A DNA stretch of 29,035 nucleotides from a virus (Duplodnaviria > Heunggongvirae > Uroviricota > Caudoviricetes): IMG/VR virus record IMGVR_UViG_2706794693_000005; one strand, 5' to 3'. Of this stretch, positions 5,236 to 22,500 are shown one piece after another. The notes under the pieces were generated by a model that was not told the origin of the DNA, searched no databases, and worked only from the letters and a program-made list of their open reading frames with translations. Numbering within the stretch: position 1 is the first letter of the stretch; each line of letters opens with the position of its first letter. Made by a program: the position numbers and the translations under genes.

Positions 5236-5259
5236 AATCTTAACTACAATATGATTCAN

Positions 5260-6843
5260 NNNNNNNNNNNNNNNNNNNNNNNNNNNNNNNNNNNNNNNNN
5301 NNNNNNNNNNNNNNNNNNNNNNNNNNNNNNNNNNNNNNNNNNNNNNNNNNNNNNNNNNNNNNNNNNNNNNNNNNNNNNNNNNNNNNNNNNNNNNNNNNNN
5401 NNNNNNNNNNNNNNNNNNNNNNNNNNNNNNNNNNNNNNNNNNNNNNNNNNNNNNNNNNNNNNNNNNNNNNNNNNNNNNNNNNNNNNNNNNNNNNNNNNNN
5501 NNNNNNNNNNNNNNNNNACTTTCGTTATATTTTTTTGCATTGGTGGCGGAGCGTGGTATACAACTAAGAAATCTGGCATTCAATTACGTACCCGTGATGG
5601 GTTTATTATAATTGTAATGTTTTGGATTTTGTTTTCTGTTATTAGTGCATTCCCTTTATGGATTGACTCAGAACTTAATTTAACGTTCATTGATGCTCTG
5701 TTTGAAGGGGTTTCTGGAATAACAACAACAGGAGCAACTGTAATTGATGATGTTAGTTCATTACCTCGGGCATATTTGTACTATCGGTCACAGTTAAATT
5801 TTATAGGTGGTTTAGGAGTTATTGTTCTGGCGGTTGCAGTATTGCCATTATTGGGTATTGGTGGTGCAAAGCTTTATCAGTCAGAAATGCCGGGGCCATT
5901 TAAGGATGACAAACTCACTCCCCGCCTGGCCGATACGTCACGGACACTGTGGATAACTTATTCTTTATTAGGTATTGCTTGTATTGTCTGTTATAGACTT
6001 GCAGGAATGCCTTTGTTTGATGCTATTTGTCACGGGATTTCCACAGTTTCGCTTGGTGGTTTCTCAACTCATAGCGAGAGTATCGGATATTTTAATAACT
6101 ATTTGGTTGAGCTGGTGGCTGGTTCTTTTTCCCTGCTATCGGCTTTCAACTTCACTCTTTGGTATATTGTTATTAGCAGAAAAACGATAAAACCTTTAAT
6201 CAGAGATATTGAACTTCGTTTCTTTCTGTTAATAGCCTTAGGGGTGATCATTGTTACCTCTTTCCAGGTCTGGCATATAGGTATGTATGACTTGCATGGA
6301 AGTTTTATTCATTCGTTTTTTCTTGCCAGCTCCATGCTCACTGATAATGGTTTAGCTACGCAGGATTATGCAAACTGGCCCACGCACACGATAGTGTTTT
6401 TGCTGTTGTCAAGTTTCTTTGGGGGATGTATAGGTTCAACCTGTGGTGGAATTAAGTCACTTCGATTTCTTATACTTTTCAAACAAAGCAAACACGAGAT
6501 AAATCAGCTTTCTCATCCCAGAGCGTTGTTGAGTGTAAATGTAGGAGGGAAGATAGTTACAGATCGTGTAATGAGGTCTGTATGGAGTTTCTTTTTTCTT
6601 TATACTCTCTTCACGGTGTTTTTTATACTGGTGTTAAATGGTATGGGATATGATTTTCTTACATCATTTGCAACAGTGGCTGCATGTATTAATAATATGG
6701 GATTAGGTTTTGGGGCTACTGCATCGTCATTCGGAGTGCTTAATGACATTGCAAAATATTTAATGTGCATAGCTATGATTCTTGGTCGCCTTGAAATTTA
6801 TCCTGTTATTATATTGTTTTCAGGTTTTTTTTGGCGCTCCTAA
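5260..6843 (+). CDS. trkG: TrkG potassium uptake protein (TrkH/TrkG family), start hidden in N block
   Basis: Visible 441 aa from 5518 (TFVIFFCIGGGAWYTTKKSGIQLRTRDGFIIIVMFWILF...ILGRLEIYPVIILFSGFFWRS) matches recalled E. coli K-12 Rac-prophage TrkG essentially residue for residue. Multi-pass membrane protein, strongly AT-rich. True start lies inside the 5260-5517 mask; 5260 is an outer bound. Confidence 0.85.
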   Translation, partial: XXXXXXXXXXXXXXXXXXXXXXXXXXXXXXXXXXXXXXXXXXXXXXXXXXXXXXXXXXXXXXXXXXXXXXXXXXXXXXXXXXXXXXTFVIFFCIGGGAWYTTKKSGIQLRTRDGFIIIVMFWILFSVISAFPLWIDSELNLTFIDALFEGVSGITTTGATVIDDVSSLPRAYLYYRSQLNFIGGLGVIVLAVAVLPLLGIGGAKLYQSEMPGPFKDDKLTPRLADTSRTLWITYSLLGIACIVCYRLAGMPLFDAICHGISTVSLGGFSTHSESIGYFNNYLVELVAGSFSLLSAFNFTLWYIVISRKTIKPLIRDIELRFFLLIALGVIIVTSFQVWHIGMYDLHGSFIHSFFLASSMLTDNGLATQDYANWPTHTIVFLLLSSFFGGCIGSTCGGIKSLRFLILFKQSKHEINQLSHPRALLSVNVGGKIVTDRVMRSVWSFFFLYTLFTVFFILVLNGMGYDFLTSFATVAACINNMGLGFGATASSFGVLNDIAKYLMCIAMILGRLEIYPVIILFSGFFWRS

Positions 6844-6980
6844 TATATGGCTGATTTATAATTGTGAGTTTAATATTATGTTGACTCACTCATTGATCCA
6901 ATACCTAACTTTACCAGCAACACCTCCGCCCCCAGTAGCACTGGCTGCTGGGGTGCGTTTTATTCATAAAGCAAGGCTGT

Positions 6981-7769
6981 ATGAGCGAGAAATTAAAGAT
7001 AGTCTATCGCCCATTACAAGAATTGTCACCGTATGCGCACAACGCCAGGACGCACAGTACTGAGCAGGTGGCACAACTGGTAGAAAGTATTAAGCAATTC
7101 GGCTGGACTAATCCGGTGCTGATTGACGAAAAGGGCGAAATTATTGCGGGTCACGGTCGTGTTATGGCGGCTGAAATGCTCAAAATGGATTCTGTTCCGG
7201 TCATTGTTCTGTCTGGCCTGACGGATGAGCAGAAAAAGGCGTACCGCCTGGCAGATAATCGCCTGCCGATGAATGCTGGCTGGGATGAAGATCTGTTGCG
7301 GATGGAGCTGTCGGACCTAATCAATGCTGATTTTGATGTCTCCCTGACAGGCTTCATCCCGGCAGAAATTGATGAACTGTTGACGGATGTTTTGCCCGGT
7401 ACAGGAAATGAGGAGGAGCCGTATACGACGAAAATTGATACGCCTGTTTATGAGCCGTCAGGCGGTAAACCGGATATCAGTGAACTGTACGACGATACGA
7501 AAACTCAGGAGCTGATCAGCCGGATACGTTCGGCGTCCCTTGATCCTGATATTGAGAAATTCCTCCTGTGTGCAGCAGAACGTCACACGGTGTTTAATTT
7601 CAGCAGAATTGCGGACTATTACGCTCATGCCCCCGCTGAAATTCAGTGCCTTTTCGAGGAGTCGGCGCTGGTGATCATTGATTATCAGCAGGCTATTGAA
7701 AATGGATTTGTCCGAATGACGCAGCGCATGGTGGAGATCATGCATGGCGGGGAGGAGGAATATGCGTGA
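6981..7769 (+). CDS. ParB-like nuclease-domain protein (YnaK-like)
   Basis: 262 aa; N-terminal region (YRPLQELSPYAHNARTHSTEQVAQLVESIKQFGWTNPVLIDEKGEIIAGHGRVMAA) has the ParB/sulfiredoxin N-terminal-domain pattern including the GxxR segment. Acidic C-terminal half. Follows trkG as ynaK does in K-12 Rac (recollection). Confidence 0.65.
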   Translation: MSEKLKIVYRPLQELSPYAHNARTHSTEQVAQLVESIKQFGWTNPVLIDEKGEIIAGHGRVMAAEMLKMDSVPVIVLSGLTDEQKKAYRLADNRLPMNAGWDEDLLRMELSDLINADFDVSLTGFIPAEIDELLTDVLPGTGNEEEPYTTKIDTPVYEPSGGKPDISELYDDTKTQELISRIRSASLDPDIEKFLLCAAERHTVFNFSRIADYYAHAPAEIQCLFEESALVIIDYQQAIENGFVRMTQRMVEIMHGGEEEYA

Positions 7770-8694
7770 TGATTTTTGCGCCTTTATTCTGACTCACGGG
7801 CGACCGGACAAAGTTCTGACTTACCGGACGTTGCGTCGTGCTGGCTATACCGGGAAAATTTTTATCGTTGTTGATGATGAAGATAAGACACGGCATCAGT
7901 ACATGGCTGAATTTGGTGAACAGGTGCTGGTATTTTCCAAAGCCGATATTGCTAGTCGTTTTGACGAAGCCGATAATTTTAGTGACCGCCGCTCAATTTT
8001 TTACGCCCGTAATGCCTGTTTCGACCAGGCAAAACTGGTCGGGTGTAAATACTTCATTCAGCTCGATGATGATTATCACGAGTTCCAGTTTCGGGTGGAT
8101 CGCAACTATGACCAGGCCTATTTCCCGATAAGGAAACTGGATGAGATCCTTTCTGAAATGCTTGCGTACTACGAATCAATACCTGCTCTTTCCATCGCTA
8201 TGTCGCAGGGCGGGGATTTTCTTGGTGACAATGGCGGCCATGCTTCGTGGGTGAAACGCAAGGCAATGAACAGCTTTATCTGTTCGGTTGATCGACCGTT
8301 CTCATTCATGGGGCGCATTAACGAGGATGTGAATACGTACACGAATCTCGGTCGCTGTGGTGAATTGTTTATGACGATCGGTGCTGTCCAGTTAGGGCAG
8401 AAACAGACGCAGAAAAACAGCGGCGGAATGACCGAGCTGTATCTGGATTCCGGAACCTACGTTAAAAGTTTTTACTCCGTCATGTATGCGCCGTCGTGCG
8501 TAAAAATCTCACTTATGGGTGCCAGTCATAAACGCATTCACCATCAGGTCACCTGGAACAACGCTGCAGTAAAAATCCTTCACGAAAAATACAGGAAGAA
8601 GACACCCTGCATATCAATGGGGGTGACAAATGATTCCGTATTCGAAAGTCGAGTCTCTGGCAGCGTGCCGGATGACTGCACAACAAATCGCTGA
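7744..8694 (+). CDS. GT-A-fold glycosyltransferase-like protein (DxD motif), function unknown
   Basis: 316 aa, no TM segments. Order of motifs matches GT2-type enzymes: FCAFILTHGRPDK (compare IPTYNR), IFIVVDDEDK, then YFIQLDDDYHEF with DDD at residues 108-110. Start overlaps the ParB-like gene by 26 nt. Assignment is by motif inspection only. Confidence 0.5.
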   Translation: MAGRRNMRDDFCAFILTHGRPDKVLTYRTLRRAGYTGKIFIVVDDEDKTRHQYMAEFGEQVLVFSKADIASRFDEADNFSDRRSIFYARNACFDQAKLVGCKYFIQLDDDYHEFQFRVDRNYDQAYFPIRKLDEILSEMLAYYESIPALSIAMSQGGDFLGDNGGHASWVKRKAMNSFICSVDRPFSFMGRINEDVNTYTNLGRCGELFMTIGAVQLGQKQTQKNSGGMTELYLDSGTYVKSFYSVMYAPSCVKISLMGASHKRIHHQVTWNNAAVKILHEKYRKKTPCISMGVTNDSVFESRVSGSVPDDCTTNR

Positions 8695-8881
8695 CGTTCT
8701 GGATGTTGATCTGAACCGACTGAAAGAAAATCGGGAAGCAATGACAGATTTTTATGCGGCCATCCGTAAGGGCAGAGCGAAAGGTGAAGCCGAGTTACGA
8801 GCGGCATTGTTTAAGCTTGCCAGAAAAGGGGATGCCTTTGCTCTGCGCGAACTACTCAGGGTGGATAAAAATCAGGACTAA
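8630..8881 (+). CDS. small hypothetical protein (83 aa), possibly DNA-binding
   Basis: ATG at 8630 preceded by GGGGGTGA; overlaps the 3' end of the upstream gene by 65 nt and ends 3 nt before the terminase small subunit start. Basic, helical-looking sequence (RKGRAKGEAELRAALFKLARKGDAFALRELL). Confidence 0.4.
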   Translation: MIPYSKVESLAACRMTAQQIADVLDVDLNRLKENREAMTDFYAAIRKGRAKGEAELRAALFKLARKGDAFALRELLRVDKNQD

Positions 8882-8884
8882 CTG

Positions 8885-9979
8885 ATGAGCAGACCGGACT
8901 GGGGGGCGTTGCAGCAGGAGTATATTGCTGAATACACCCGCTCCGGTATATCTCCGGTGGCATGGTGTGAAGCAAGGGGACTGAATTACGCAACAGCCCG
9001 TCGTTACATCAAAAAAACTCCGAAAAATGCGCAGACAGAAATGTGCAAAACTGCGCAAAAAAGTGCGCAGAAAAAATCTGCGCAGACTGCACAAAAGCGG
9101 AACGAAAAATCTCAGGAAAAAAAGCCAGTATTCGATGCGGGCCTGAATGAGGGCGACGCGGAGGAATTTTCGTTCTGTCCCGATGAATTCGGCATTTCTG
9201 ACCAGCAGGCTAAGTTTGCGATGCTTGTTGCTCAGGGTAAAAAGCCGACAGAGGCGTACCGACTAGCCGGTTATGAGGGGCAAGGTGCGACAGCTAACAG
9301 CAACGCCAGTCGTATGCTTAGAAATGCCAGGGTTTTTCGCGCTATCAGCTACTTCCGCAATCAGTACCAGAAACGCTATACCGCAGACCTGGATTTACTA
9401 GTGAGTCAGTTGATGGCTATTGTCCTGGCCGACCCCAATCAGCTTGCACAATTTCGCCGTGTTAACTGCCGTTATTGCTGGGGCGAGAATCATCTCTACC
9501 AGTGGCGCGATATAGCAGAATTCGACAAGGCAGCGGCGCAGGCTTCCAGAGATGGCAAACCCGAACCGGAATATGGAGGCCTCGGCTTTGTTGATAACGC
9601 CATACCCAATCCGGACTGCCCGAAGTGCTGCGGTGAGGGAACGGGACAGCTTTATATGGCTGATACCACTCTGCTTGATGGGGATGCGCGGCAATTATAT
9701 GCAGGGGCAAAATTCGGAAAATTCGGCGTTGAGATCCTGCTGGAGGATAAGGCTGCCGCCCGGCGTGAATTGTTGCGTTTGTTTTCTGCTGGCGGGGCTT
9801 TATGTGCAGATAAGCGGCTACGGGAACTGGAAATTGAACGGCGCAGAATGGAAAACCAGAAGCTGCGCAAAGAGATCGAAACGGTGGAAGATAATGAACA
9901 TCCCCAGCCTGTGGCGATCAATATTAATGTGGTTGATGCCAGAGTAAGGAGTGATGAAGATGATCTCTCCGACGCTTAA
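8885..9979 (+). CDS. terminase small subunit with N-terminal HTH, Lys-rich linker and Cys-rich C-terminal extension
   Basis: 364 aa immediately upstream of and overlapping the large terminase. Residues ~95-160 (SDQQAKFAMLVAQGKKPTEAYRLAGYEGQGATANSNASRMLRNARVFRAI) resemble the Terminase_2-type small-subunit core. N-terminal HTH-like segment; CRYCWG...CPKCCG zinc-ribbon-like pairs. Confidence 0.6.
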   Translation: MSRPDWGALQQEYIAEYTRSGISPVAWCEARGLNYATARRYIKKTPKNAQTEMCKTAQKSAQKKSAQTAQKRNEKSQEKKPVFDAGLNEGDAEEFSFCPDEFGISDQQAKFAMLVAQGKKPTEAYRLAGYEGQGATANSNASRMLRNARVFRAISYFRNQYQKRYTADLDLLVSQLMAIVLADPNQLAQFRRVNCRYCWGENHLYQWRDIAEFDKAAAQASRDGKPEPEYGGLGFVDNAIPNPDCPKCCGEGTGQLYMADTTLLDGDARQLYAGAKFGKFGVEILLEDKAAARRELLRLFSAGGALCADKRLRELEIERRRMENQKLRKEIETVEDNEHPQPVAININVVDARVRSDEDDLSDA

Positions 9980-11261
9980 TGTGCCTCAGGCGCGATTTCT
10001 TTCAATGCCCCATAAATTTAAAGCCTATATTGCTGGTTTTGGCTCGGGCAAAACATGGGTTGGGTGTGGCGGCATATGCAAGGGGATTTGGGAGCATCCA
10101 GGTATAAATCAGGGATATTTTGCGCCAACGTATCCCCAAATTCGCGATATTTTTTACCCTACAGTGGAAGAAGTTGCTGCTGACTGGGGATTGAACGTAA
10201 AAATTAATGAGGGAAATAAAGAGGTTCACTTTTATTACGGACGCCAGTATCGGGGAACCACTATCTGCAGATCGATGGAGAAGCCACAAACGATCGTCGG
10301 TTTCAAAATTGGTAATGCGTTGGTGGATGAACTGGACATTTTGCCGAAGGAAAAAGCCAGAACGGCGTGGCGCAAGATAATTGCACGTATGCGTTATAAG
10401 ATTGATGGACTTCGCAACGGTATTGACGTTACAACCACGCCGGAAGGATTCAAATTTGTCTACGAGCAGTTTGTTAAAGCCGTGCGTGAAAAAACAGAGC
10501 TGGCCTCACTGTATGGTCTGGTGCAGGCATCTACTTTCGATAATGAAAAGAACCTGCCAGCAGATTACATTCCTTCGCTTCTTGAATCATACCCTCCAGA
10601 GCTGATTAAAGCCTATCTTCGAGGACAGTTTACTAACCTGACAAGTGGTACTGTTTACCATCAGTTTGACCGGAAACTGAATAATTGCGAAGAAGTGGAG
10701 CAGCCAGGGGAGCCGATTTATATTGGGATGGATTTTAACGTTGGAAAGATGGCGGGAATCGTCCATGTGCTGCGTTTGGGGCTTCCATGTGCGGTAACTG
10801 AAATCATCAATGCCTACGATACGCCGGATATGATCCGCATCATTAAAGAACGCTTCTGGCTGTATGATGGGAATGATTACCGGAAAGTGAGGGAAATTTA
10901 TATTTATCCAGATGCTTCCGGGGATTCCAGAAAATCAAGTAACGCAAGTACGACGGATATAGCCCAGCTTAAGCAGGCTGGTTTTAACGTTGTGGTGAAC
11001 AGCTCGAACCCGCCAGTAAAAGATCGCGTTAACTCAATGAATGCAATGTTCTGCAATGCCAATGGTGAGCGTCGCTATAAAGTTAATGTGAAGCGTTGCC
11101 CGTTATATGCCGAATCTCTGGAGCAACAGGTCTGGGATGAGAAGGGGGAGCCTGATAAAAAATCTGGCAATGATCACCCGAATGATGCCGGAGGTTATTT
11201 CATCGTTAAGCAATTCCCTATTGTCAAACCGACCGGAAGAGTCACATCACTTCGGATTTAA
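9960..11261 (+). CDS. terminase large subunit (ATPase/nuclease)
   Basis: Walker A GFGSGKTWVG near the N-terminus and Walker B-like ALVDELD about 100 residues later. AGGAG SD at 9947-9951 favours the ATG at 9960 over the track GTG at 9951. Followed directly by the portal gene. Confidence 0.8.
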   Translation: MISPTLNVPQARFLSMPHKFKAYIAGFGSGKTWVGCGGICKGIWEHPGINQGYFAPTYPQIRDIFYPTVEEVAADWGLNVKINEGNKEVHFYYGRQYRGTTICRSMEKPQTIVGFKIGNALVDELDILPKEKARTAWRKIIARMRYKIDGLRNGIDVTTTPEGFKFVYEQFVKAVREKTELASLYGLVQASTFDNEKNLPADYIPSLLESYPPELIKAYLRGQFTNLTSGTVYHQFDRKLNNCEEVEQPGEPIYIGMDFNVGKMAGIVHVLRLGLPCAVTEIINAYDTPDMIRIIKERFWLYDGNDYRKVREIYIYPDASGDSRKSSNASTTDIAQLKQAGFNVVVNSSNPPVKDRVNSMNAMFCNANGERRYKVNVKRCPLYAESLEQQVWDEKGEPDKKSGNDHPNDAGGYFIVKQFPIVKPTGRVTSLRI

Positions 11262-11263
11262 TT

Positions 11264-12572
11264 ATGGCTGATATATCAACACCCAACCTCGACTATAACG
11301 ATATGCTGGAGGCGTGGGATATTAACGACGCACTGATGGGCGGTACGCTTGAAATGCGCAGGCAGGGGGAAAATTATCTCCCAAAATGGCCTAACGAAGA
11401 TGAAGACGCTTATAAAAAACGCCTGTCTGTGGCTACGCTACTTCCTGTGTATGAAGAAAGCATCAAGCAAAATATTGGGCGCATATTTGCAGAGCCGACA
11501 GTATTGAGTGAGGAAACGCCGGCAAAAATCAGGGAATATGNNNNNNNNNNNNNNNNNNNNNNNNNNNNNNNNNNNNNNNNNNNNNNNNNNNNNNNNNNNN
11601 NNNNNNNNNNNNNNNNNNNNNNNNNNNNNNNNNNNNNNNNNNNNNNNNNNNNNNNNNNNNNNNNNNNNNNNNNNNNNNNNNNNNNNNNNNNTAAAAGAGG
11701 TCATCATTATTGATGGTGATGATTTCGGGCAGAAGAAGGTGGAGCAGATCCGCCATATTATGCCCCGTCGAGTTGAAATTTATCGACGTAGCGAAGGCAC
11801 TAATGGCGAATCTGTCTGGACGCTTCATGAGTCATGGAATACCAGCCGTGATGATATTCCTCTGGTAACACTGTACACGAAGAAAACAGGATTTATGCGT
11901 GGTACACCGCCATTGCTTAATCTTGGCTTGCTGAATATCAAGCACTGGCAAAGCCAGAGCGAGCAGGACAATATTCTTCATGTTGCCCGCGTTCCATTGC
12001 TGGTGGCCTACGGGCTGGACAGGAATGAAGAACTGACGGTTGGTGCATCCACCGCTACGATTTTTGAGGACAGAACAAAAAATGGCCTCGAATATGTTGA
12101 ACATAGTGGCGCAGCGATAGAATCTGGCGAAACATCACTTGAGAAGCTGGAAAATCAGATGCGTCATGCCGGCGCTAAACTTCTGCGTGCTGAAAATACA
12201 TCCACCAAATCTGTTGATCAGACTAATGAAGAGCGAATGCAGGAAAACTCGCCGCTTTATACAATGGCGAACTCCCTCGAAGATGCCCTCGATAATATTC
12301 TCCAGATAATGGCGGAATGGATCGGAGAGAGTTGCGGTGGCAATGTGGATGTGCGCACTGAACTGGATGTATCTGCCCAGGTGTTTGACTCATCCTCCGC
12401 GCTGGCTGTTCAGTCATTGCGTCAGGGCGGTGATATACGTCAGATTGATGCGGTTCGGGTGTTGCAGGCGTTGAAATTTATCGATCAGGATTCCCGTCCA
12501 GAGGAAGTGATCGATGAATTAAAAAATCAGAGTGTAATGCTGATGGAAATCAATGATGCAAACCGTGAATGA
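11264..12572 (+). CDS. portal protein (interrupted by N block 11541-11691)
   Basis: Positioned between large terminase and the Mu-F-like head morphogenesis gene. The two visible parts are in different frames across the mask, so the mask evidently does not preserve original length. Assignment by gene order and size only. Confidence 0.55.
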
Positions 12573-13668
12573 ACGGCTGCGTGATGAATCAATTGCTCAT
12601 GCAGTCTGGATATCCCGCTATAGCACTGGCGTGGCTGCCAGAATGGTGAAAATACTGAATGACAGCGATGCGGAACTTACTGCTCGCCTGCTGATAGCAC
12701 TGGACAGCCTCGATCCAGGTAGTTTTACCGTTAAGCGCCTGGAGTCACTTCTGGCGAGCGTCAGAGAGGTTAACCGCACTGCTATTAACAGCATGTTTAC
12801 CAGTCTCTCCGGAGAGCTGAACGAGCTGGCAATTTATGAGGCTGGTTATCAGTTAAGTCTGTTTGATTCTATGCTACCTGATTTTGTTGCTGATGTTCAC
12901 CCTCTGGTTGGTATCTCTCCTGATGCACTTTATGCCGCTGCAATGGCGCGACCATTCCAGGGACGACTGCTCAGTGAGTGGGCCTCAGATCTTGAGGCGG
13001 ATCGGCTCAGACGCATAACAAATACAGTGCGTCAGGGTTTTTTGCTGGGGGATACCAATGAGCAGATCGCAAGAAAAATTCGGGGACATGTCAGTAAGGG
13101 ATTTCAGGATGGTGCATTGCAGATGAGCCGGGCTAATGCGGCCAGCATTGCAAAAACAGCGGTTGGACATCTTGCTGCTACTGCCCGTGAGAGTTTTGCC
13201 AGCGCGAATAATGATTTGATTAAGGGTAAGCAATGGTTATCAACGCTTGATAATCGTACTACGCCACAATGTCGAATCAGGGATCGCCTCAAATATACGC
13301 TGAATAATAAACCTGTAGGTCACAGCGTGCCTTATTTGCAGGGGCCGGGAAAAATTCATTTCTGCTGCCGCTCAACGGAAACGTTCATTCTGAAATCAGC
13401 GAAGGAACTGGGTATTGATGTTCGCGATATTTCCCCGGCTGAGCGGGCCAGCATGGATGGCGTGGTGGCCGGAGATACAACCTACAGGGAATGGTTTTTG
13501 CGTCAGCCTTACACCAGACAAAAACAGATTGTGGGGGAAAGCCGAGCAAAGCTGATTCGGGATGGTGGTATGTCGCCAGATGAATTTTACACCGATAAAG
13601 GCGAATGGCTGACGCTGAAGCAGCTCCGTGAGCGTGATGCACAGGTATTCAGAAAAGCAGGGATTTAA
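12553..13668 (+). CDS. head morphogenesis protein (Mu gpF / SPP1 gp7-like minor head protein)
   Basis: 371 aa following the portal; contains the WLSTLDNRTTPQCRIRDR segment resembling the conserved Mu F-domain motif. Confidence 0.7.
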   Translation: MMQTVNERLRDESIAHAVWISRYSTGVAARMVKILNDSDAELTARLLIALDSLDPGSFTVKRLESLLASVREVNRTAINSMFTSLSGELNELAIYEAGYQLSLFDSMLPDFVADVHPLVGISPDALYAAAMARPFQGRLLSEWASDLEADRLRRITNTVRQGFLLGDTNEQIARKIRGHVSKGFQDGALQMSRANAASIAKTAVGHLAATARESFASANNDLIKGKQWLSTLDNRTTPQCRIRDRLKYTLNNKPVGHSVPYLQGPGKIHFCCRSTETFILKSAKELGIDVRDISPAERASMDGVVAGDTTYREWFLRQPYTRQKQIVGESRAKLIRDGGMSPDEFYTDKGEWLTLKQLRERDAQVFRKAGI

Positions 13669-13687
13669 ATAAATCATTTATTACAAC

Positions 13688-13712
13688 AGGCTACCTTCGG
13701 GTGGCCTTTTTT
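13688..13712 (+). terminator. stem-loop with UUCG tetraloop plus U-run (intra-operon attenuator/terminator-like)
   Basis: aggctacc-ttcg-ggtggcct followed by TTTTTT; lies between the head morphogenesis stop (13668) and the scaffold gene. Confidence 0.4.
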
Positions 13713-13772
13713 ATTGCTGCGATCCGGATGGTGAGCAGCGTAACTGTCGGAAGACTTAAACCAGGTACTAAT

Positions 13773-14537
13773 ATGAAACTGAAAACGGTCGAGATTAACG
13801 GAAAACAATACGCAGAAATTGATACTGCTGGCCTGCCAGTTTATGTGCACGACGATGGTAAAGAAATTGGCTTCGATGCACCGCTGGCGACAAAAAAAAT
13901 TACAGAGCTTAATGGCGAGGCAAAAAATCATCGCCTGGCTAAAGAAGCTGCAGAGGAAAAACTGGCTAAGTTTGCCGCTATCGAAGACCCGAAGAAGGCG
14001 ATCGAGGCACTGGAAATGCTGTCAAAAATCGACCAGAAAAAGCTGCTCGATGCGGGACAGGTTGACCAGGTTAAGGCAGAAATTACGAAAAATTTTCAGC
14101 AGCAATTAGATGAAGAAAAGCAACGCTCTCAGATGCTGGAGAAGCAGCTTTACGATTCTATGATTGGCGGTAGTTTTGCGGGTTCAAAATATATTGCCGA
14201 TAAAATTGCGATCCCGGCAGATTTATTACAAGCCCGCTTCGGGCAGGCATTCAAAGTGGAAGAAGGGAGGATCGTTGCTTATGACGCTTCCGGCAACAAA
14301 ATTTATTCCCGCGCGAAGCCTGGCGAACTGGCGCAGTTTGATGAGGCGCTGGAGTTCCTTGTCGAAAATTACCCTCAGAAAGACTACATCCTGAAAGCCA
14401 GTGGCAACAATGGCGGCGGCTCCCGTCCGACACAGCATGATATTGGTCAGAAAACGATGAAACGCTCTGCTTTTGATGCACTGGATGTTGCAGGTAAGCA
14501 AAACGCATTGAAAGACGGTATCACAATCGTTGATTAA
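13773..14537 (+). CDS. scaffolding protein (putative)
   Basis: Highly charged, coiled-coil-like sequence (EEKLAKFAAIEDPKKAIEALEMLSKIDQKKLLDAGQVDQVKAEITKNFQQQLDEEKQRSQMLEKQL) immediately upstream of the capsid gene. The ATG at 13773 is preferred because the GTG at 13701 lies inside the upstream hairpin; start is uncertain. Confidence 0.5.
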   Translation: MKLKTVEINGKQYAEIDTAGLPVYVHDDGKEIGFDAPLATKKITELNGEAKNHRLAKEAAEEKLAKFAAIEDPKKAIEALEMLSKIDQKKLLDAGQVDQVKAEITKNFQQQLDEEKQRSQMLEKQLYDSMIGGSFAGSKYIADKIAIPADLLQARFGQAFKVEEGRIVAYDASGNKIYSRAKPGELAQFDEALEFLVENYPQKDYILKASGNNGGGSRPTQHDIGQKTMKRSAFDALDVAGKQNALKDGITIVD

Positions 14538-19518: not shown

Positions 19519-22500
19519 ATGGCAGAGCAAACCTCGCGTCTCGCAATAATTATTGATAGCACTGGAGCGAAAAATAATGCTGACAATCTGACCTCCTCAT
19601 TAGTCAAAATGACGCAGGCTGGGGAAACTGCTGCAAATAGCGCAGGGAAAGTGACTAAGGCAACAGAAGATGAGAAGAACGCGCTCGCAAAATTAAAAGC
19701 AGCTATTGATCCAGTTGGTGCCGCAATTGATACTGTCGGTCGACGCTATTCTGAATTAAAGAAATTTTTCGATAAAGGGCTTATTGATAAAGAAGAATAT
19801 GAATTTCTTGTCCGTAAACTTAATGAAACCACAGAGGAATTGAGCGGGGTTGCGCAAGCGCAGAGAGAAGCCGAGAAGGCCGGAAAACTTGCTGCCGCCC
19901 AGCAGGAAGCGCAGGCTCAGGCCTTTCAAAGAATGCTGGACAAGATCGACCCTCTGGCTGCGGCGCTAAGAAATCTTGAACAACAGCATGATGAACTTAA
20001 TGCTGCGTTTGCATCCGGGAAAATAAATGGTTCTCAGTTTGAGAATTATAGCCGAAAAATACAGGAAACACGGCGAGAGCTTACCGGAGAGGCTCAGGCA
20101 GAGCGAGAAGCAGCAAAAGCGCATGATGAACAGGTTGTTGCTTTGCAACGTCTGATTGCTCAACTTGATCCTGTCGGAACTGCTTTTAATCGTCTGGTAG
20201 AACAACAGAAACAGCTCAATGAAGCAAAAGCTAAGGGGATGCTTTCTCCTGAAATGTATGAGGAGCTTTCTGGAAAACTTCGTGCTATGCGGAGTGAGCT
20301 TGAGGTTACTCAATCACAATTAAGCAAAACCGGAATGTCGGCAAAACAAACGGCTTTTGCTATGCGCATGTTGCCTGTACAAATGACGGATATTGTTGTT
20401 GGGTTGTCCACTGGTCAGTCGCCATTTATGGTGTTAATGCAGCAGGGCGGCCAGCTAAAAGATATGTTCGGTGGGATTGGCCCGGCGATCAAAGGTGTAG
20501 GTTCTTATGTGCTGGGATTAATTAATCCTTTTACCCTGGCCGCAGCAGCCGTTGGGGTCTTAGGACTGGCTTACTATAAAGGCTCTCAGGAGCAGGACGA
20601 ATTTAATAAATCTCTTATTCTTACCGGAAATCAGTTGGGGACAACCAGCGGGCAATTGGGCGATATAGCTCAACGTGCCGGGAATGCGGCTGATTCGACA
20701 ACTGGTGCTGCGGCGGCAGTATTAAATCAGCTTGTGCGTTCGGGAAAGGTAGCGAGCAGTTCGCTGGAGCAAGTGACGACAGCGATAGTAAAAACGAGCG
20801 AAGTAACAGGAATATCAACCGAACAACTGGTTAATGACTTCAATGAAATTGCAAAGGATCCTGTCAGTGCCATATCAAAACTTAATGATCAGTACCATTT
20901 TCTGACACTTGCGACTTATAACCAGATTAAGGCGCTACAGGATGAAGGGAACCAGCAGGAGGCCGCCCGCATTGCGACAGAAGAATACTCATCCTCAATG
21001 ATCCAGCGCACCAACCAGATTAAAGAAAATCTTGGTTATCTTGAGACTGCATGGAAAGCTGTCGCAGACTCCGCAAAATGGGCATGGGATTCCATGCTGG
21101 ATATTGGCCGTGAGGCCTCCCTTGATCAAAAAATCTCAGATGTTCTCCGTCAAATTGATGAAATAGAAAAAAATACCCGACCCGGAGTTTTCGGGTTAGG
21201 TGGCATTGGAGATGGCGGAGCTCAAAATAAAAGGCTGGCACGATTAAAGCAGCAATTGGGCGTACTTCAAGCAGAAAAAATTGCTCAGGACGTACTAAAT
21301 TCATCAATAAACGATTACAACAAGCGACAACAGGAAGGAATTGAACTCAGACAGAGAGCAGATGCCTTTTCAAAACAATATCAGACCCGGGAGCAGCAGA
21401 GAGCTAGTGAACTTGCAAAACTGGAAAAGCTAAAGAATCAGTATTCAAAGGAAGAATATAATAATCTTATCGCTCAAATAAATGAGCGTTATAAAGATCC
21501 AAAGCAACCAAAGGCGAAAGGTTATTCTGATGATGCAGCCCAACGAATGATTGATCATCTGAATCAACAGAATGCGTTACTAAGTTCACAAGCTGAGTTG
21601 ACCGTTAAATTAAGTTCCTCTGAACAGGAACTGGTTAAGTGGCGTCAGCGGATTGCCGACCTAGAGTCACGACCATCATCGAAATTAACCCAGGATCAGA
21701 AATCGCTTCTCTTACACCGGGAAGAAATAACCACGTTGATGGAGAAAAATGTTGCGATTGAAAAAAATAACAGGCTAATCAAGGAATCCGCCGAAATAAC
21801 AGCATGGCGTGATTCATTGCAGGCTTCGATTGATAATCGTCAGCAGGGGTATGATATTCAGATTGCTGGTTATGGGGTTGGCGATAAAAATCAGCAACGC
21901 CAGCAGGAATTACTGCGGATTGAACATGGATATAACAATCAGCGTCTGCAACTTGAACGTGACTATGCAGATAAATCCCGTGGAATGTCAGATCATGTTT
22001 TTCAAGAGAAAATGCAGGCTCTGAATGATGCTCTGGAACGGGAAAAAGAAATTGTCAGACAGAAAAACGAGCAGCTCGATATTCAGGCAGGAGACTGGGT
22101 TAGTGGTGCCTCCCAGGGATTCAATAACTGGCTGGATGACACTAAGGATATCAGTGAGCAGATAAAATCAACCACGACTCAGATGTTTGATGGGATGACC
22201 GATGCGCTGGGTGATTTTGTCACGACAGGCAAGGCAAATTTTCGTTCTTTCGCTACTTCCGTGATTTCGGATCTTAGTCGAATAGCATTAAAGGCTTCAA
22301 TTACTGGGATTTTCGACAGCATTAGTAACAGTTCTTCTGGGGGGATTTTAGGAACTATCGGGAGTGCTATTAGTAAATTTATTCCGAATGCAAAGGGCGG
22401 TGTTTATGAGTCTCCGTCATTGAGCACGTATTCGAACGGTATTTATGATTCCCCGCAATTTTTTGCTTTTGCAAAAGGGGCTGGTGTTTTTGGTGAGGCT

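Follow-up and report, generated by a model that had tools for sequence, protein, structure and literature searches.

What might be glycosylated by the product of a phage gene that sits just before the packaging genes and overlaps a gene for a ParB-like protein? The window (the whole stretch of DNA analyzed, 29,035 nucleotides) belongs to an E. coli Rac-type prophage, and the two genes lie in it just 5' of the DNA-packaging genes. The sequence-only reading placed three open reading frames between trkG and the terminase, and all three are there, on the + strand: one of 262 aa at 6981-7769, one of 316 aa at 7744-8694, and one of 83 aa at 8630-8881, with trkG itself at 5251-6843. The terminase genes, one for the small subunit (8885-9979) and one for the large (9951-11261), both also on the + strand, are the usual downstream neighbors of the pair. 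On the other side, in the gap that separates the ParB-like gene from the trkG moron, a scan of the sequence found a hairpin resembling a terminator (6930-6953, + strand), its 10-bp stem running into a T-rich stretch. Its function is putative, and late, antiterminated transcription presumably passes through it. The pair itself sits inside the late operon, with genes for lysis, packaging, and the head, rather than under a promoter active in lysogeny.

The gene for the 316-aa protein more likely begins at the ATG at 7762 (hence 7762-8694, + strand, 310 aa) than at 7744. That ATG is preferred because a Shine-Dalgarno sequence, GGAGGAGGAA, lies upstream of it, the resulting overlap with the ParB gene is 8 nt, homologs have MRDDF N-termini, and PGAP makes the same choice. 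At the junction (7750-7769, + strand), both the Shine-Dalgarno sequence and the start codon thus fall within the 3' end of the ParB frame, which terminates with the codon at 7767-7769, and the overlap (ATGCGTGA) suggests translational coupling. The third frame (8630-8881, + strand, or 69 aa if begun at 8672, as in PGAP) encodes a small basic protein (pI 9.25) that resembles the helix-turn-helix (HTH) portion of small terminase subunits. It matches phrog_309 (8e-23), and its relatives, 125-167 aa in length, are encoded directly downstream of the glycosyltransferase gene. The 83-aa protein is therefore a small-terminase-like HTH protein, the product of a packaging gene that stands outside the conserved pair.

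The three motifs from which the 7744-8694 product had been taken for a glycosyltransferase can all be read in its translation, with ILTHGR occupying residues 15-20, VVDDEDK 42-48, and QLDDDYHEF 106-114, and structural modeling, as had been foreseen, predicts a GT-A fold with a DxD motif. The label GT2-like, however, does not hold in the sense of CAZy or Pfam: the protein belongs to the TAGT/JGT/GREB1 family (PF20691, whose profile it matches over residues 14-228 with 118.8 bits, the cut-off being 27.5, and an E of 4.1e-34), and its best matches in BFVD are likewise TAGT-domain proteins. Numbered from 7744, R20, D108-D109-D110, and N193/D195 are invariant, the catalytic residues among them across the domains of life. 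In the subfamily to which the protein belongs, the chain also continues past the end of the Pfam model for about 60 conserved aa, and a C-terminal segment specific to the subfamily carries the invariant residues T222-Q223, K241-S-F-Y, R264, H266, H267, and W271. The protein is evidently soluble, with no membrane segment.

The partner (6981-7769, + strand, 262 aa, pI 4.5) had been said to begin with a ParB/Srx-type domain, and this was borne out. Pfam ParB_N (PF02195) matches with 29.3 bits, above its cut-off of 26.3, and Foldseek matches the predicted structure to CTP- or CDP-bound ParB, Noc, KorB, and PadC at 1e-6. A profile search with the protein matches Noc, Spo0J, ParB, and sulfiredoxin. 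The structure model is confident for a nucleotide-binding domain (residues 1 to about 135, predicted to have the ParB/Srx NTP-binding fold), falls below a pLDDT of 50 at residues 137-158, and ends in a helical C-domain (172-255); confidence is low in the C-terminal halves of the models of both partner and transferase. By alignment, both nucleotide-binding motifs are present, box II (GxxR) as AGHGR and box III ([E/D]N) as LADN, with AGHGRVMAA aligning to AGERRYRAA and LADN to LVEN of Thermus Spo0J. G57, D92, and N93 are invariant, and Nocardia phage NTR1 has another residue in place of R60. The linker (about 137-170) is disordered yet carries an invariant motif, Y148-T-x-K-x-x-x-P155-x-Y157-E, and the C-domain that follows (about 172-255) resembles no known family, having no match in Pfam or the PDB. 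The notion that the C-domain might be a divergent HTH DNA-binding domain was dropped, since the domain is acidic (pI 4.4) and finds no support in either database.

Is the partner, then, simply a partition protein? Database records call the first gene a partition protein or a nuclease, and one might suppose the two genes to be unrelated neighbors, the ParB-like protein serving the terminase in packaging, in partition, or as a nuclease accessory, and the glycosyltransferase altering the host surface as a moron, as prophage TarP does. The adjoining trkG is, after all, a moron. However, the partner is no canonical ParABS partition ParB: it lacks an HTH domain, it scores 38.1 with TIGR00180, under the cut-off of 58.45, no ParA gene was found in the prophage, and the only repeats around the pair are short and at chance level, none of them parS-like. 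The second half of the proposal fares no better, as the transferase lacks a membrane segment and the pair lies within the late operon rather than under a lysogenic promoter.

Also against unrelated neighbors is the company the genes keep. In viral contigs, the partner gene overlaps the start of the TAGT gene in 174 of 202 unique instances, as a rule by 4-29 nt. The rest are mostly variants on the theme: in four the computed overlap is larger, one is a fusion, about 14 have a gene inserted between the pair, about eight are arranged TAGT-partner-TAGT, and in one (L085) the partner lies 3 kb upstream. In cellular genomes (prophages), the partner is present at all 65 usable loci. The hosts span many bacterial phyla, archaeal viruses also carry the module, and virulent phages are included. 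Across 128 nonredundant loci, only the TAGT and its partner are universal. Sometimes the two are a single polypeptide (L108, at 9299-10867, and P0244-P0246, which are 43-46% identical to L108). Elsewhere, the partner is reduced to a stand-alone C-domain protein of 125-140 aa, without the ParB N-domain, and such proteins may be flanked by two TAGT paralogs. The linker motif and C-domain (encoded by 7401-7766, + strand) are thus the constant companion of this TAGT subfamily. TAGT and ParB-like partner constitute a conserved two-gene module, and that they should be neighbors without a common function seems very unlikely. A Mantel test of coevolution was set aside, as the correlation between TAGT and partner distances was significant but weak (r about 0.2), lower than that between ParB and TerL (r 0.48).

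Several kinds of gene recur beside the pair or inserted into it, encoding a second glycosyltransferase, an NAD epimerase/dehydratase, a UDP-galactopyranose mutase, a fusion of His-phosphatase and nucleotidyltransferase, or a radical-SAM protein. Those that tailor sugar nucleotides give the module the character of a pathway. In most loci the terminase is directly downstream, but some phages, jumbo Vibrio phages among them, have it amid genes for primase, helicase, polymerase, clamp, and RecA.

Could the genes nonetheless be remnants of a decaying prophage, with no current function? Much in E. coli gives that impression. Truncated or chimeric variants are numerous, and the Rac prophage of K-12 has lost most of the region. 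(The K-12 genes are not degraded, as the sequence-only reading had it, but rather deleted, in the case of the glycosyltransferase, terminase, and head genes; what remains, ynaK, joins 87 codons from the 5' end of the ParB gene to the tail-region ydaY.) Among dairy phages, the TAGT gene is disrupted in several L. delbrueckii phages that are viable, and the enzyme is therefore dispensable for growth. Against decay, 41 of 44 E. coli-type viral loci have the two genes intact, and their dN/dS relative to E. coli relatives, calculated from close relatives (those 60-80% identical being saturated at synonymous sites), is 0.06-0.18. The genes are under purifying selection and are not chance open reading frames. 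The copy in the window is intact, and several E. coli strains carry copies 100% identical to it. Of 5426 complete E. coli genomes, 1604 (30%) match some part of the 2-kb region, and 867 (16%) have the full module, taken as at least 80% of that region. With catalytic residues invariant as well from one domain of life to another, loss of function can hardly be credited.

If the enzyme is active, on what does it act? To our knowledge, every characterized DNA glycosyltransferase depends on a 5-hydroxymethylpyrimidine, acting either on the base itself or on a sugar that it carries, and phage DNA glycosylation has so far always been traced to the product of a dCMP or dUMP hydroxymethylase or of a TET/JBP dioxygenase. 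The Rac-type prophage contains no Tet_JBP protein, no thymidylate-synthase-like hydroxymethylase, and no cytosine methyltransferase. Two phages that carry the module and whose genomes are complete, c5 (31.8 kb) and phi jlb1 (38 kb), offer no source of 5-hydroxymethylpyrimidine either, nor any unannotated gene large enough to be a candidate, and the c5 proteins of unannotated role that were tested gave no match. A source is also absent among the recurrent neighbor clusters of the 128 loci and the Pfam-annotated contigs. Tet_JBP is not among the 25 most frequent or strongest Pfam families listed for the 150 nearest other genes, though a scan of this kind (Pfam applied to the representatives of neighbor clusters and to the set of 150 proteins) could hide a weak match in a singleton. 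With no enzyme to make 5hmC or 5hmU, therefore, DNA glycosylation by the known route would be impossible in these phages.

One way out is to suppose that the enzyme is a classical TAGT, acting on 5hmC, 5hmU, or glucosyl-5hmC, and that the base comes from a coresident or coinfecting phage or from an enzyme so distant as to go unrecognized. The family and the conserved catalytic signature are indeed those of glycosyltransferases that act on 5hmC and 5hmU, and PHROG 842, which the protein matches at 8e-104, is labeled beta-glucosyl-HMC-alpha-glucosyltransferase. Moreover, thousands of 5mYOX-like sequences lack a Pfam annotation (PMC13229309), so divergent dioxygenases could be missed. But no fitting gene is left in the genomes of c5 and phi jlb1, no third gene is conserved alongside the pair, and purifying selection that operates across phyla is not what reliance on a rare coinfection would be expected to produce. 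The enzyme from which the label derives is also remote: tblastn with the TAGT protein did not retrieve T2 or T6 at all, only T4-like Aeromonas phages at 23% identity. An acceptor provided in trans is accordingly improbable.

A second way out is to suppose that the acceptor is not DNA but protein: the partner itself, a packaging or virion protein, or a protein of the host, with the ParB-like protein as substrate or scaffold. GREB1, a member of the TAGT family, O-GlcNAcylates the estrogen receptor ER-alpha (PMC7968844). The partner is acidic and has no recognizable DNA-binding domain, and in some lineages the ParB N-domain is absent altogether; both facts count against DNA as the target. The invariant motif in the linker, rich in Tyr and Thr and set in a disordered region (Y148...Y157-E), could be an acceptor, and the C-domain-only partners between two TAGT paralogs may be seen in the same light. 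The lack of a 5-hydroxymethylpyrimidine source in the loci surveyed would no longer need explanation, and late expression beside the head genes suits modification of a virion protein as well as it does modification of DNA. On the other side, the ParB fold that accompanies the module is of the clade fused to DNA methyltransferases, and where it is not near the terminase, it lies amid replication genes. The structural similarity to glycogenin is of little help, being generic to the GT-A fold. Nor does the layout described for mycobacteriophages resemble the module: their glycosyltransferases proposed to modify virions lie inside the structural block, among head genes in the Corndog type, unlinked to the ParB-like gene (PMC4351075), whereas the glycosyltransferase considered here lies upstream of the terminase and is always tied to a ParB-like or C-domain gene. 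A protein target is possible but doubtful.

We favor, at roughly even odds, a late-expressed glycosylation module guided by its ParB-like protein and most likely acting on replicated phage DNA. According to this proposal, both genes would be expressed with the late genes for lysis, packaging, and the head, as the two components of a glycosylation system. The 310-aa protein would be an active GT-A glycosyltransferase using a nucleotide-sugar donor. The 262-aa protein would be its obligate partner, the linker motif and C-domain binding or activating the transferase, presumably in a physical complex. The ParB fold, fused to the C-domain in most lineages, would most likely engage DNA, as judged by analogy with the ParB-like activators of phage thymine dioxygenases, which work on double-stranded DNA. 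We infer that the substrate is most likely replicated phage DNA, close in time to its packaging, and that a sugar-decorated genome would result, which may be protected, perhaps from restriction. The chemical acceptor would then have to be something other than 5hmC or 5hmU made by the phage. Perhaps, and this is offered tentatively, the sugar is added after replication without any 5-hydroxymethylpyrimidine, directly to a canonical base, a mark made by the host, or the backbone. Against this proposal count the viable phages in which the TAGT gene is disrupted, the low confidence in the C-terminal halves of both structure models, and the literature searched, which reports no modified nucleoside for any phage that carries the module. 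The same literature contains no experimental work on these genes and no description of the partner domain.

The question extends beyond one prophage. According to the group that characterized phage DNA glycosyltransferases, about 65% of viral contigs that bear glycosyltransferases have neither a hydroxymethylase nor a TET/JBP dioxygenase, and that group left these contigs out as less likely to modify DNA. The window provides a clean, intact representative of one class of these orphan glycosyltransferases, a class that is not random but a tightly coupled unit of two proteins, sometimes of one fused protein, under purifying selection, with a partner domain that is new as far as the searches of the literature, Pfam, and the PDB show. 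Since the full module is present in 16% of the complete E. coli genomes but absent from K-12, the target of an orphan glycosyltransferase can be tested in the easiest of hosts. If the target is DNA, the answer bears on restriction evasion, the targeting of type IV restriction, the sequencing and cloning of phage DNA, and enzymes for labeling DNA. If it is protein, phages have a new protein-glycosylation system with a dedicated scaffold derived from ParB. And if sugar is added without 5-hydroxymethylpyrimidine, then there is a new chemical route to glycosylated DNA, used by phages of most bacterial phyla and of some archaea.

How does the module compare with systems already known? With the rest of PF20691, which comprises TET/JBP-associated phage glycosyltransferases, JGT (the glucosyltransferase of trypanosome base J), and GREB1, the transferase shares family membership, the GT-A fold, and the R...DDD...ED signature. 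A second glycosyltransferase or a sugar epimerase nearby is also a feature of characterized gene clusters that glycosylate 5hmC (10.1101/2023.12.21.572611). Unlike other TAGTs, it comes without a TET/JBP dioxygenase, a cytosine C5-methyltransferase, or a thymidylate-synthase-like hydroxymethylase, and it has both its C-terminal extension and an obligate, specific partner domain.

In T2 and T6, the comparable enzyme adds a second glucose to glucosyl-5hmC, itself the product of dCMP hydroxymethylase and alpha-glucosyltransferase. That enzyme, the beta-glucosyl-HMC alpha-glucosyltransferase, belongs to the same Pfam family (PMC13390438), but the genes of its pathway for dCMP hydroxymethylase and alpha-glucosyltransferase are absent from the Rac-type prophage, c5, and phi jlb1, and the product name that these phages inherit from PHROG is therefore an overannotation.

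The partner invites comparison with three kinds of ParB-fold proteins. Canonical CTPase clamps (ParB, Noc, and KorB) have in common with it the CTPase fold at the N-terminus, including the motifs GxxR and [D/E]N, and are its best structural matches, but the partner is acidic and lacks, as described above, the other attributes of partition. A second kind is known from phages. That ParB-like proteins encoded near terminases work with DNA-modifying enzymes, an idea raised in the sequence-only reading, is an existing hypothesis, credited to Iyer et al. 2013 in PMC8256090 and PMC13229309. Phage thymine dioxygenases dependent on ParB have since been demonstrated experimentally, ParB176 activating 5mYOX176 on double-stranded DNA (O'Toole et al. 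2026, PMC13229309). In architecture, as set against the published description, the partner resembles ParB176 in its succession of nucleotide-binding domain, short helical segment, disordered linker, and C-terminal domain, with no recognizable DNA-binding domain. As with 5mYOX176 and ParB176, its gene adjoins one for an enzyme of the DNA-modification type, near the terminase, and the CTP-binding residues are conserved. The difference is that the adjacent enzyme is a glycosyltransferase, with no Tet_JBP in the loci surveyed. The commonest gene neighbors of 5mYOX are glycosyltransferases (31%), ParBs (27%), and terminases (19%), but the 5mYOX clade associated with ParB goes with kinases, amidotransferases, and amino-acid:DNA transferases, and the clade linked to glycosyltransferases is without ParB (PMC13229309).

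The third kind comes closest in sequence. Fusions of ParB domains with DNA methyltransferases provide the best matches to the ParB N-domain (phrog_498, 6e-51; PADLOC MTase_II, 1.5e-38; Kaljevic et al. 2025, PMC12704722), and the sole match in PADLOC, which covers defense systems, is to the ParB domain of such a methyltransferase model. Fusions of the ParB-N6_N4_Mtase type are enriched in prophages and commonly lie near packaging genes (PMC12704722). The same survey of the ParB fold names no glycosyltransferase among the partners (Kaljevic et al. 2025, PMC12704722). In the module described here, the place of the methyltransferase domain is taken by a helical domain that would recruit a glycosyltransferase or is fused to one.

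The window comprises the late region of an E. coli lambdoid prophage of the Rac type, in which a Q-like antiterminator and lysis genes are followed by the trkG moron, the module considered here, the small and large terminase subunits, portal, and head genes. Several complete genomes, e.g., that of strain EC2, carry the 2-kb module stretch with 100% identity. The three open reading frames recognized in the sequence-only reading are present exactly where it placed them: a 262-aa ParB-like protein (the partner, 6981-7769), a glycosyltransferase (TAGT, 7744-8694), and an 83-aa protein (8630-8881). TAGT most probably starts at 7762 (residues are numbered here from 7744), because the ATG at that position follows a Shine-Dalgarno sequence, GGAGGAGGAA, and has an 8-nt overlap with the ParB stop codon, and because TAGT homologues start with MRDDF. 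PGAP also picks 7762. Among other features of the region, trkG (potassium transporter, 5251-6843) is a moron lying between lysis and late packaging genes, with a GC fraction of ~0.32-0.38, low beside the ~0.49 of adjacent genes, and a terminator-like hairpin of its own 3' of the gene (6930-6953). Within the small-terminase gene, three copies of AAAANTGCGCAGA(C/A) at 9023-9087 encode a repeated AQK/SAQ-rich linker; they could be pac-related or just low-complexity. Masked stretches (N/X in translations) at ~5257-5520 in trkG and ~11540-11690 in the portal gene do not affect the finding.

The proposal that the 262-aa protein begins with a ParB/Srx-type domain holds: residues 1 to ~135 adopt that fold, with a Pfam ParB_N match above the cut-off, profile-search hits on Noc, Spo0J, ParB, and sulfiredoxin, and structural hits by Foldseek on CTP/CDP-bound ParB, Noc, KorB, and PadC. 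In alignment, its AGHGRVMAA falls on the GERRxRA arginine patch and its LADN on the ENxxR box. The domain has its closest kin in the ParB domains of phage DNA methyltransferase fusions (phrog_498, 6e-51; PADLOC MTase_II, 1.5e-38). A partition ParB was considered and rejected, as the score falls below the TIGR00180 cut-off and there is no HTH, no ParA, and no nearby parS-like repeat. Residues 137-158 are predicted to be disordered, yet they carry the invariant motif Y148-T-x-K-x-x-x-P155-x-Y157-E, and residues 172-255 form a domain modelled as helical, with invariant R201-H202, Y214, Q222, E226, and D234. The linker plus C-domain gave no significant match in Pfam or the PDB.

The 310-aa product of TAGT (316 aa from 7744) matches PF20691, 'TET-Associated Glycosyltransferase', at 118.8 bits (cut-off 27.5) and PHROG 842 at 8e-104; in PGAP and UniRef it goes by 'GREB1-related protein'. 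No solved structure within the family is detectable by sequence. Aligned homologues (38-83% identity) from E. coli, Salmonella, Pantoea, Sphingomicrobium, Lactobacillus phages, Nocardia phage NTR1, and archaeal virus HHTV-2 share invariant residues that include R20, D108-D109-D110, N193, and D195, which is the R...DDD...ED pattern that the NEB group reports in phage-encoded GT-A DNA glycosyltransferases as well as in trypanosome JGT (10.1101/2023.12.21.572611). The family match and these residues make the earlier assignment to a GT-A-like (DxD) protein correct. A conserved C-terminal segment (TQ222-223, K241-SFY, R264, H266, H267, W271) lies outside the Pfam model.

The two genes travel together. 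An overlapping ParB-then-TAGT pair is found directly 5' of terminase also in Lactobacillus gasseri phage phi jlb1, as genes 1 and 2, adjoining cos and upstream of terminase, in L. delbrueckii phage c5, and just upstream of terminase in NTR1 and haloarchaeal virus HHTV-2. The comparison took in 289 loci from four viral-contig scans, including annotated phage and E. coli regions. Upstream sequence is available for 202 unique TAGT genes; in 174 of them the partner gene overlaps the TAGT start, with computed overlaps of up to 98 nt and modes of 8-11 nt (the largest arise partly from the ORF caller, which uses the most upstream start codon). The remainder comprise four larger computed overlaps, one true fusion (522 aa), about 14 pairs with one inserted gene, about eight arrangements of TAGT / C-domain-only protein / TAGT, and one locus (L085) with the partner 3 kb upstream. 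Among 128 loci non-redundant at 80% TAGT identity, the only universal genes are TAGT (125) and partner (115); the next commonest cluster, the Terminase_3 large terminase two genes downstream, occurs in 59. That partner and TAGT have two independent functions is very unlikely.

An independent sample of species-representative genomes (Bacteroidota, Bacillota, Pseudomonadota, Desulfobacterota, Ignavibacteria, Planctomycetes, Verrucomicrobia, Spirochaetes, Actinobacteria, Saccharibacteria, and one archaeon) has the partner at all 65 loci, at 10 of them as the C-domain only. Stand-alone C-domain proteins (125-140 aa) retain the linker motif, and the 'hypothetical' gene 5' of TAGT in Vibrio phage pv27 (191 kb) encodes one. 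The linker plus C-domain is therefore the partner that is specific to this TAGT subfamily and universal in it; a ParB NTPase fold is often added but is not obligatory. Further ParB-TAGT fusion clusters (529-543 aa) are just 43-46% identical to the first fusion, so the fusion is a real lineage.

Among E. coli relatives, the partner has a dN/dS of 0.07-0.14 and TAGT one of 0.06-0.18, and 41 of 44 E. coli-type loci have both genes intact. Their sequences indicate that both are functional; that they are decaying is very unlikely. PGAP labels the intact 262-aa gene a truncated 'ynaK pseudogene, missing C-terminus', covering its first 258 nt only, and leaves ~520 nt of real coding sequence without annotation in many RefSeq E. 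coli genomes (6981-7769 corresponds to 20082-20870 of locus L001). The call is apparently an artefact of using the 87-aa K-12 YnaK remnant as reference: in K-12, a deletion that takes out the glycosyltransferase, terminase, and head genes fuses codon 87 of ynaK to the tail-region gene ydaY. In E. coli, both genes occur in many chimeric variants joined to fragments of tail-fibre, Lom, NlpC/P60, or terminase (e.g., proteins P0027, P0042, P0200, P0230; 97-100% identical along part of the length), which suggests that deletion junctions of the kind seen in K-12 are frequent in decaying Rac-type prophages. The PHROG-based label 'beta-glucosyl-HMC-alpha-glucosyltransferase' on the TAGT genes of NC_019449, NC_024206, NC_021340, OR413349, and others (L002-L008) is probably an over-annotation inherited from PHROG 842, these phages encoding no hydroxymethylcytosine pathway.

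Several viable L. delbrueckii dairy phages (phiLdb KF188410, Ld17 KJ564037, LL-Ku AY739900, Ld25A KJ564036) keep the ParB-like gene while TAGT is split, truncated, or cut to its last ~45 codons. TAGT is thus dispensable for propagation on dairy strains, and the module is therefore accessory, outside the packaging machinery.

Genes inserted in or directly after the pair are donor-sugar tailoring functions and resemble those of experimentally verified 5hmC-glycosylating clusters (10.1101/2023.12.21.572611). They include a second TAGT-like glycosyltransferase, an NAD-dependent epimerase/dehydratase (downstream at 11 loci, inserted at two), UDP-galactopyranose mutase (six loci), and a fusion of histidine-phosphatase and cytidylyltransferase-like domains (five). 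A radical-SAM protein of ~319 aa, encoded directly downstream of TAGT at eight viral loci (cluster 14, e.g., L173 10864-11823) and after a ParB-TAGT fusion gene at L370 (7419-8378), might serve in sugar tailoring or acceptor preparation. L371 is a contig of 62 kb, and one source assigns its TAGT protein to a Methanobrevibacter MAG; the contig has a weak ART-PolyVal (ADP-ribosyltransferase-like) gene upstream of the pair (8825-9202), an N6/N4 DNA methylase downstream (10857-11555), and an intein inside its large terminase (12127-14310).

We detected neither Tet_JBP nor a thymidylate-synthase-like hydroxymethylase nor a C5-methyltransferase in the whole Rac-type prophage, the complete c5 and phi jlb1 genomes (which also have no DNA polymerase or nucleotide-metabolism genes), the neighbour clusters present in at least three loci, the families listed for the 150 nearest remaining genes, or the Pfam-annotated contigs. 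N6/N4 methyltransferases occur sporadically. The module is a glycosylation pathway from which the enzyme that normally makes the acceptor is missing, and from gene content the acceptor would have to be something other than phage-made 5hmC or 5hmU; one supplied in trans is unlikely.

We give DNA about an even chance (roughly 0.5) of being the target. It is favoured by family precedent, by a ParB clade otherwise fused to DNA methyltransferases, by the module's position at the replication/packaging boundary or amid replication genes, and by an architecture like that of ParB176, the activator that a phage thymine dioxygenase needs specifically on dsDNA (PMC13229309). The main rival, an unlikely one by our estimate, has a protein as the glycosylation target, perhaps the invariant Tyr/Thr motif of the partner itself; GREB1 has a protein substrate (PMC7968844), and the partner is acidic (pI 4.5) and has no DNA-binding domain. 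The putative roles in DNA glycosylation and anti-restriction, which the sequence-only reading had raised, are both plausible, and the module is directly testable in E. coli.

About 65% of glycosyltransferase-containing viral contigs lack a 5-methylpyrimidine dioxygenase or ThyS and were judged less likely to be DNA modifiers (10.1101/2023.12.21.572611). Dioxygenases linked to kinases and amino-acid transferases come with ParB, while the glycosyltransferase-linked dioxygenase clade is without it (PMC13229309), and a survey of ParB folds makes no mention of glycosyltransferases (PMC12704722). On this evidence, the ParB(C-domain)-TAGT unit is apparently a separate, uncharacterised variant, namely a TAGT module that is independent of TET and has an obligate partner domain not described before.
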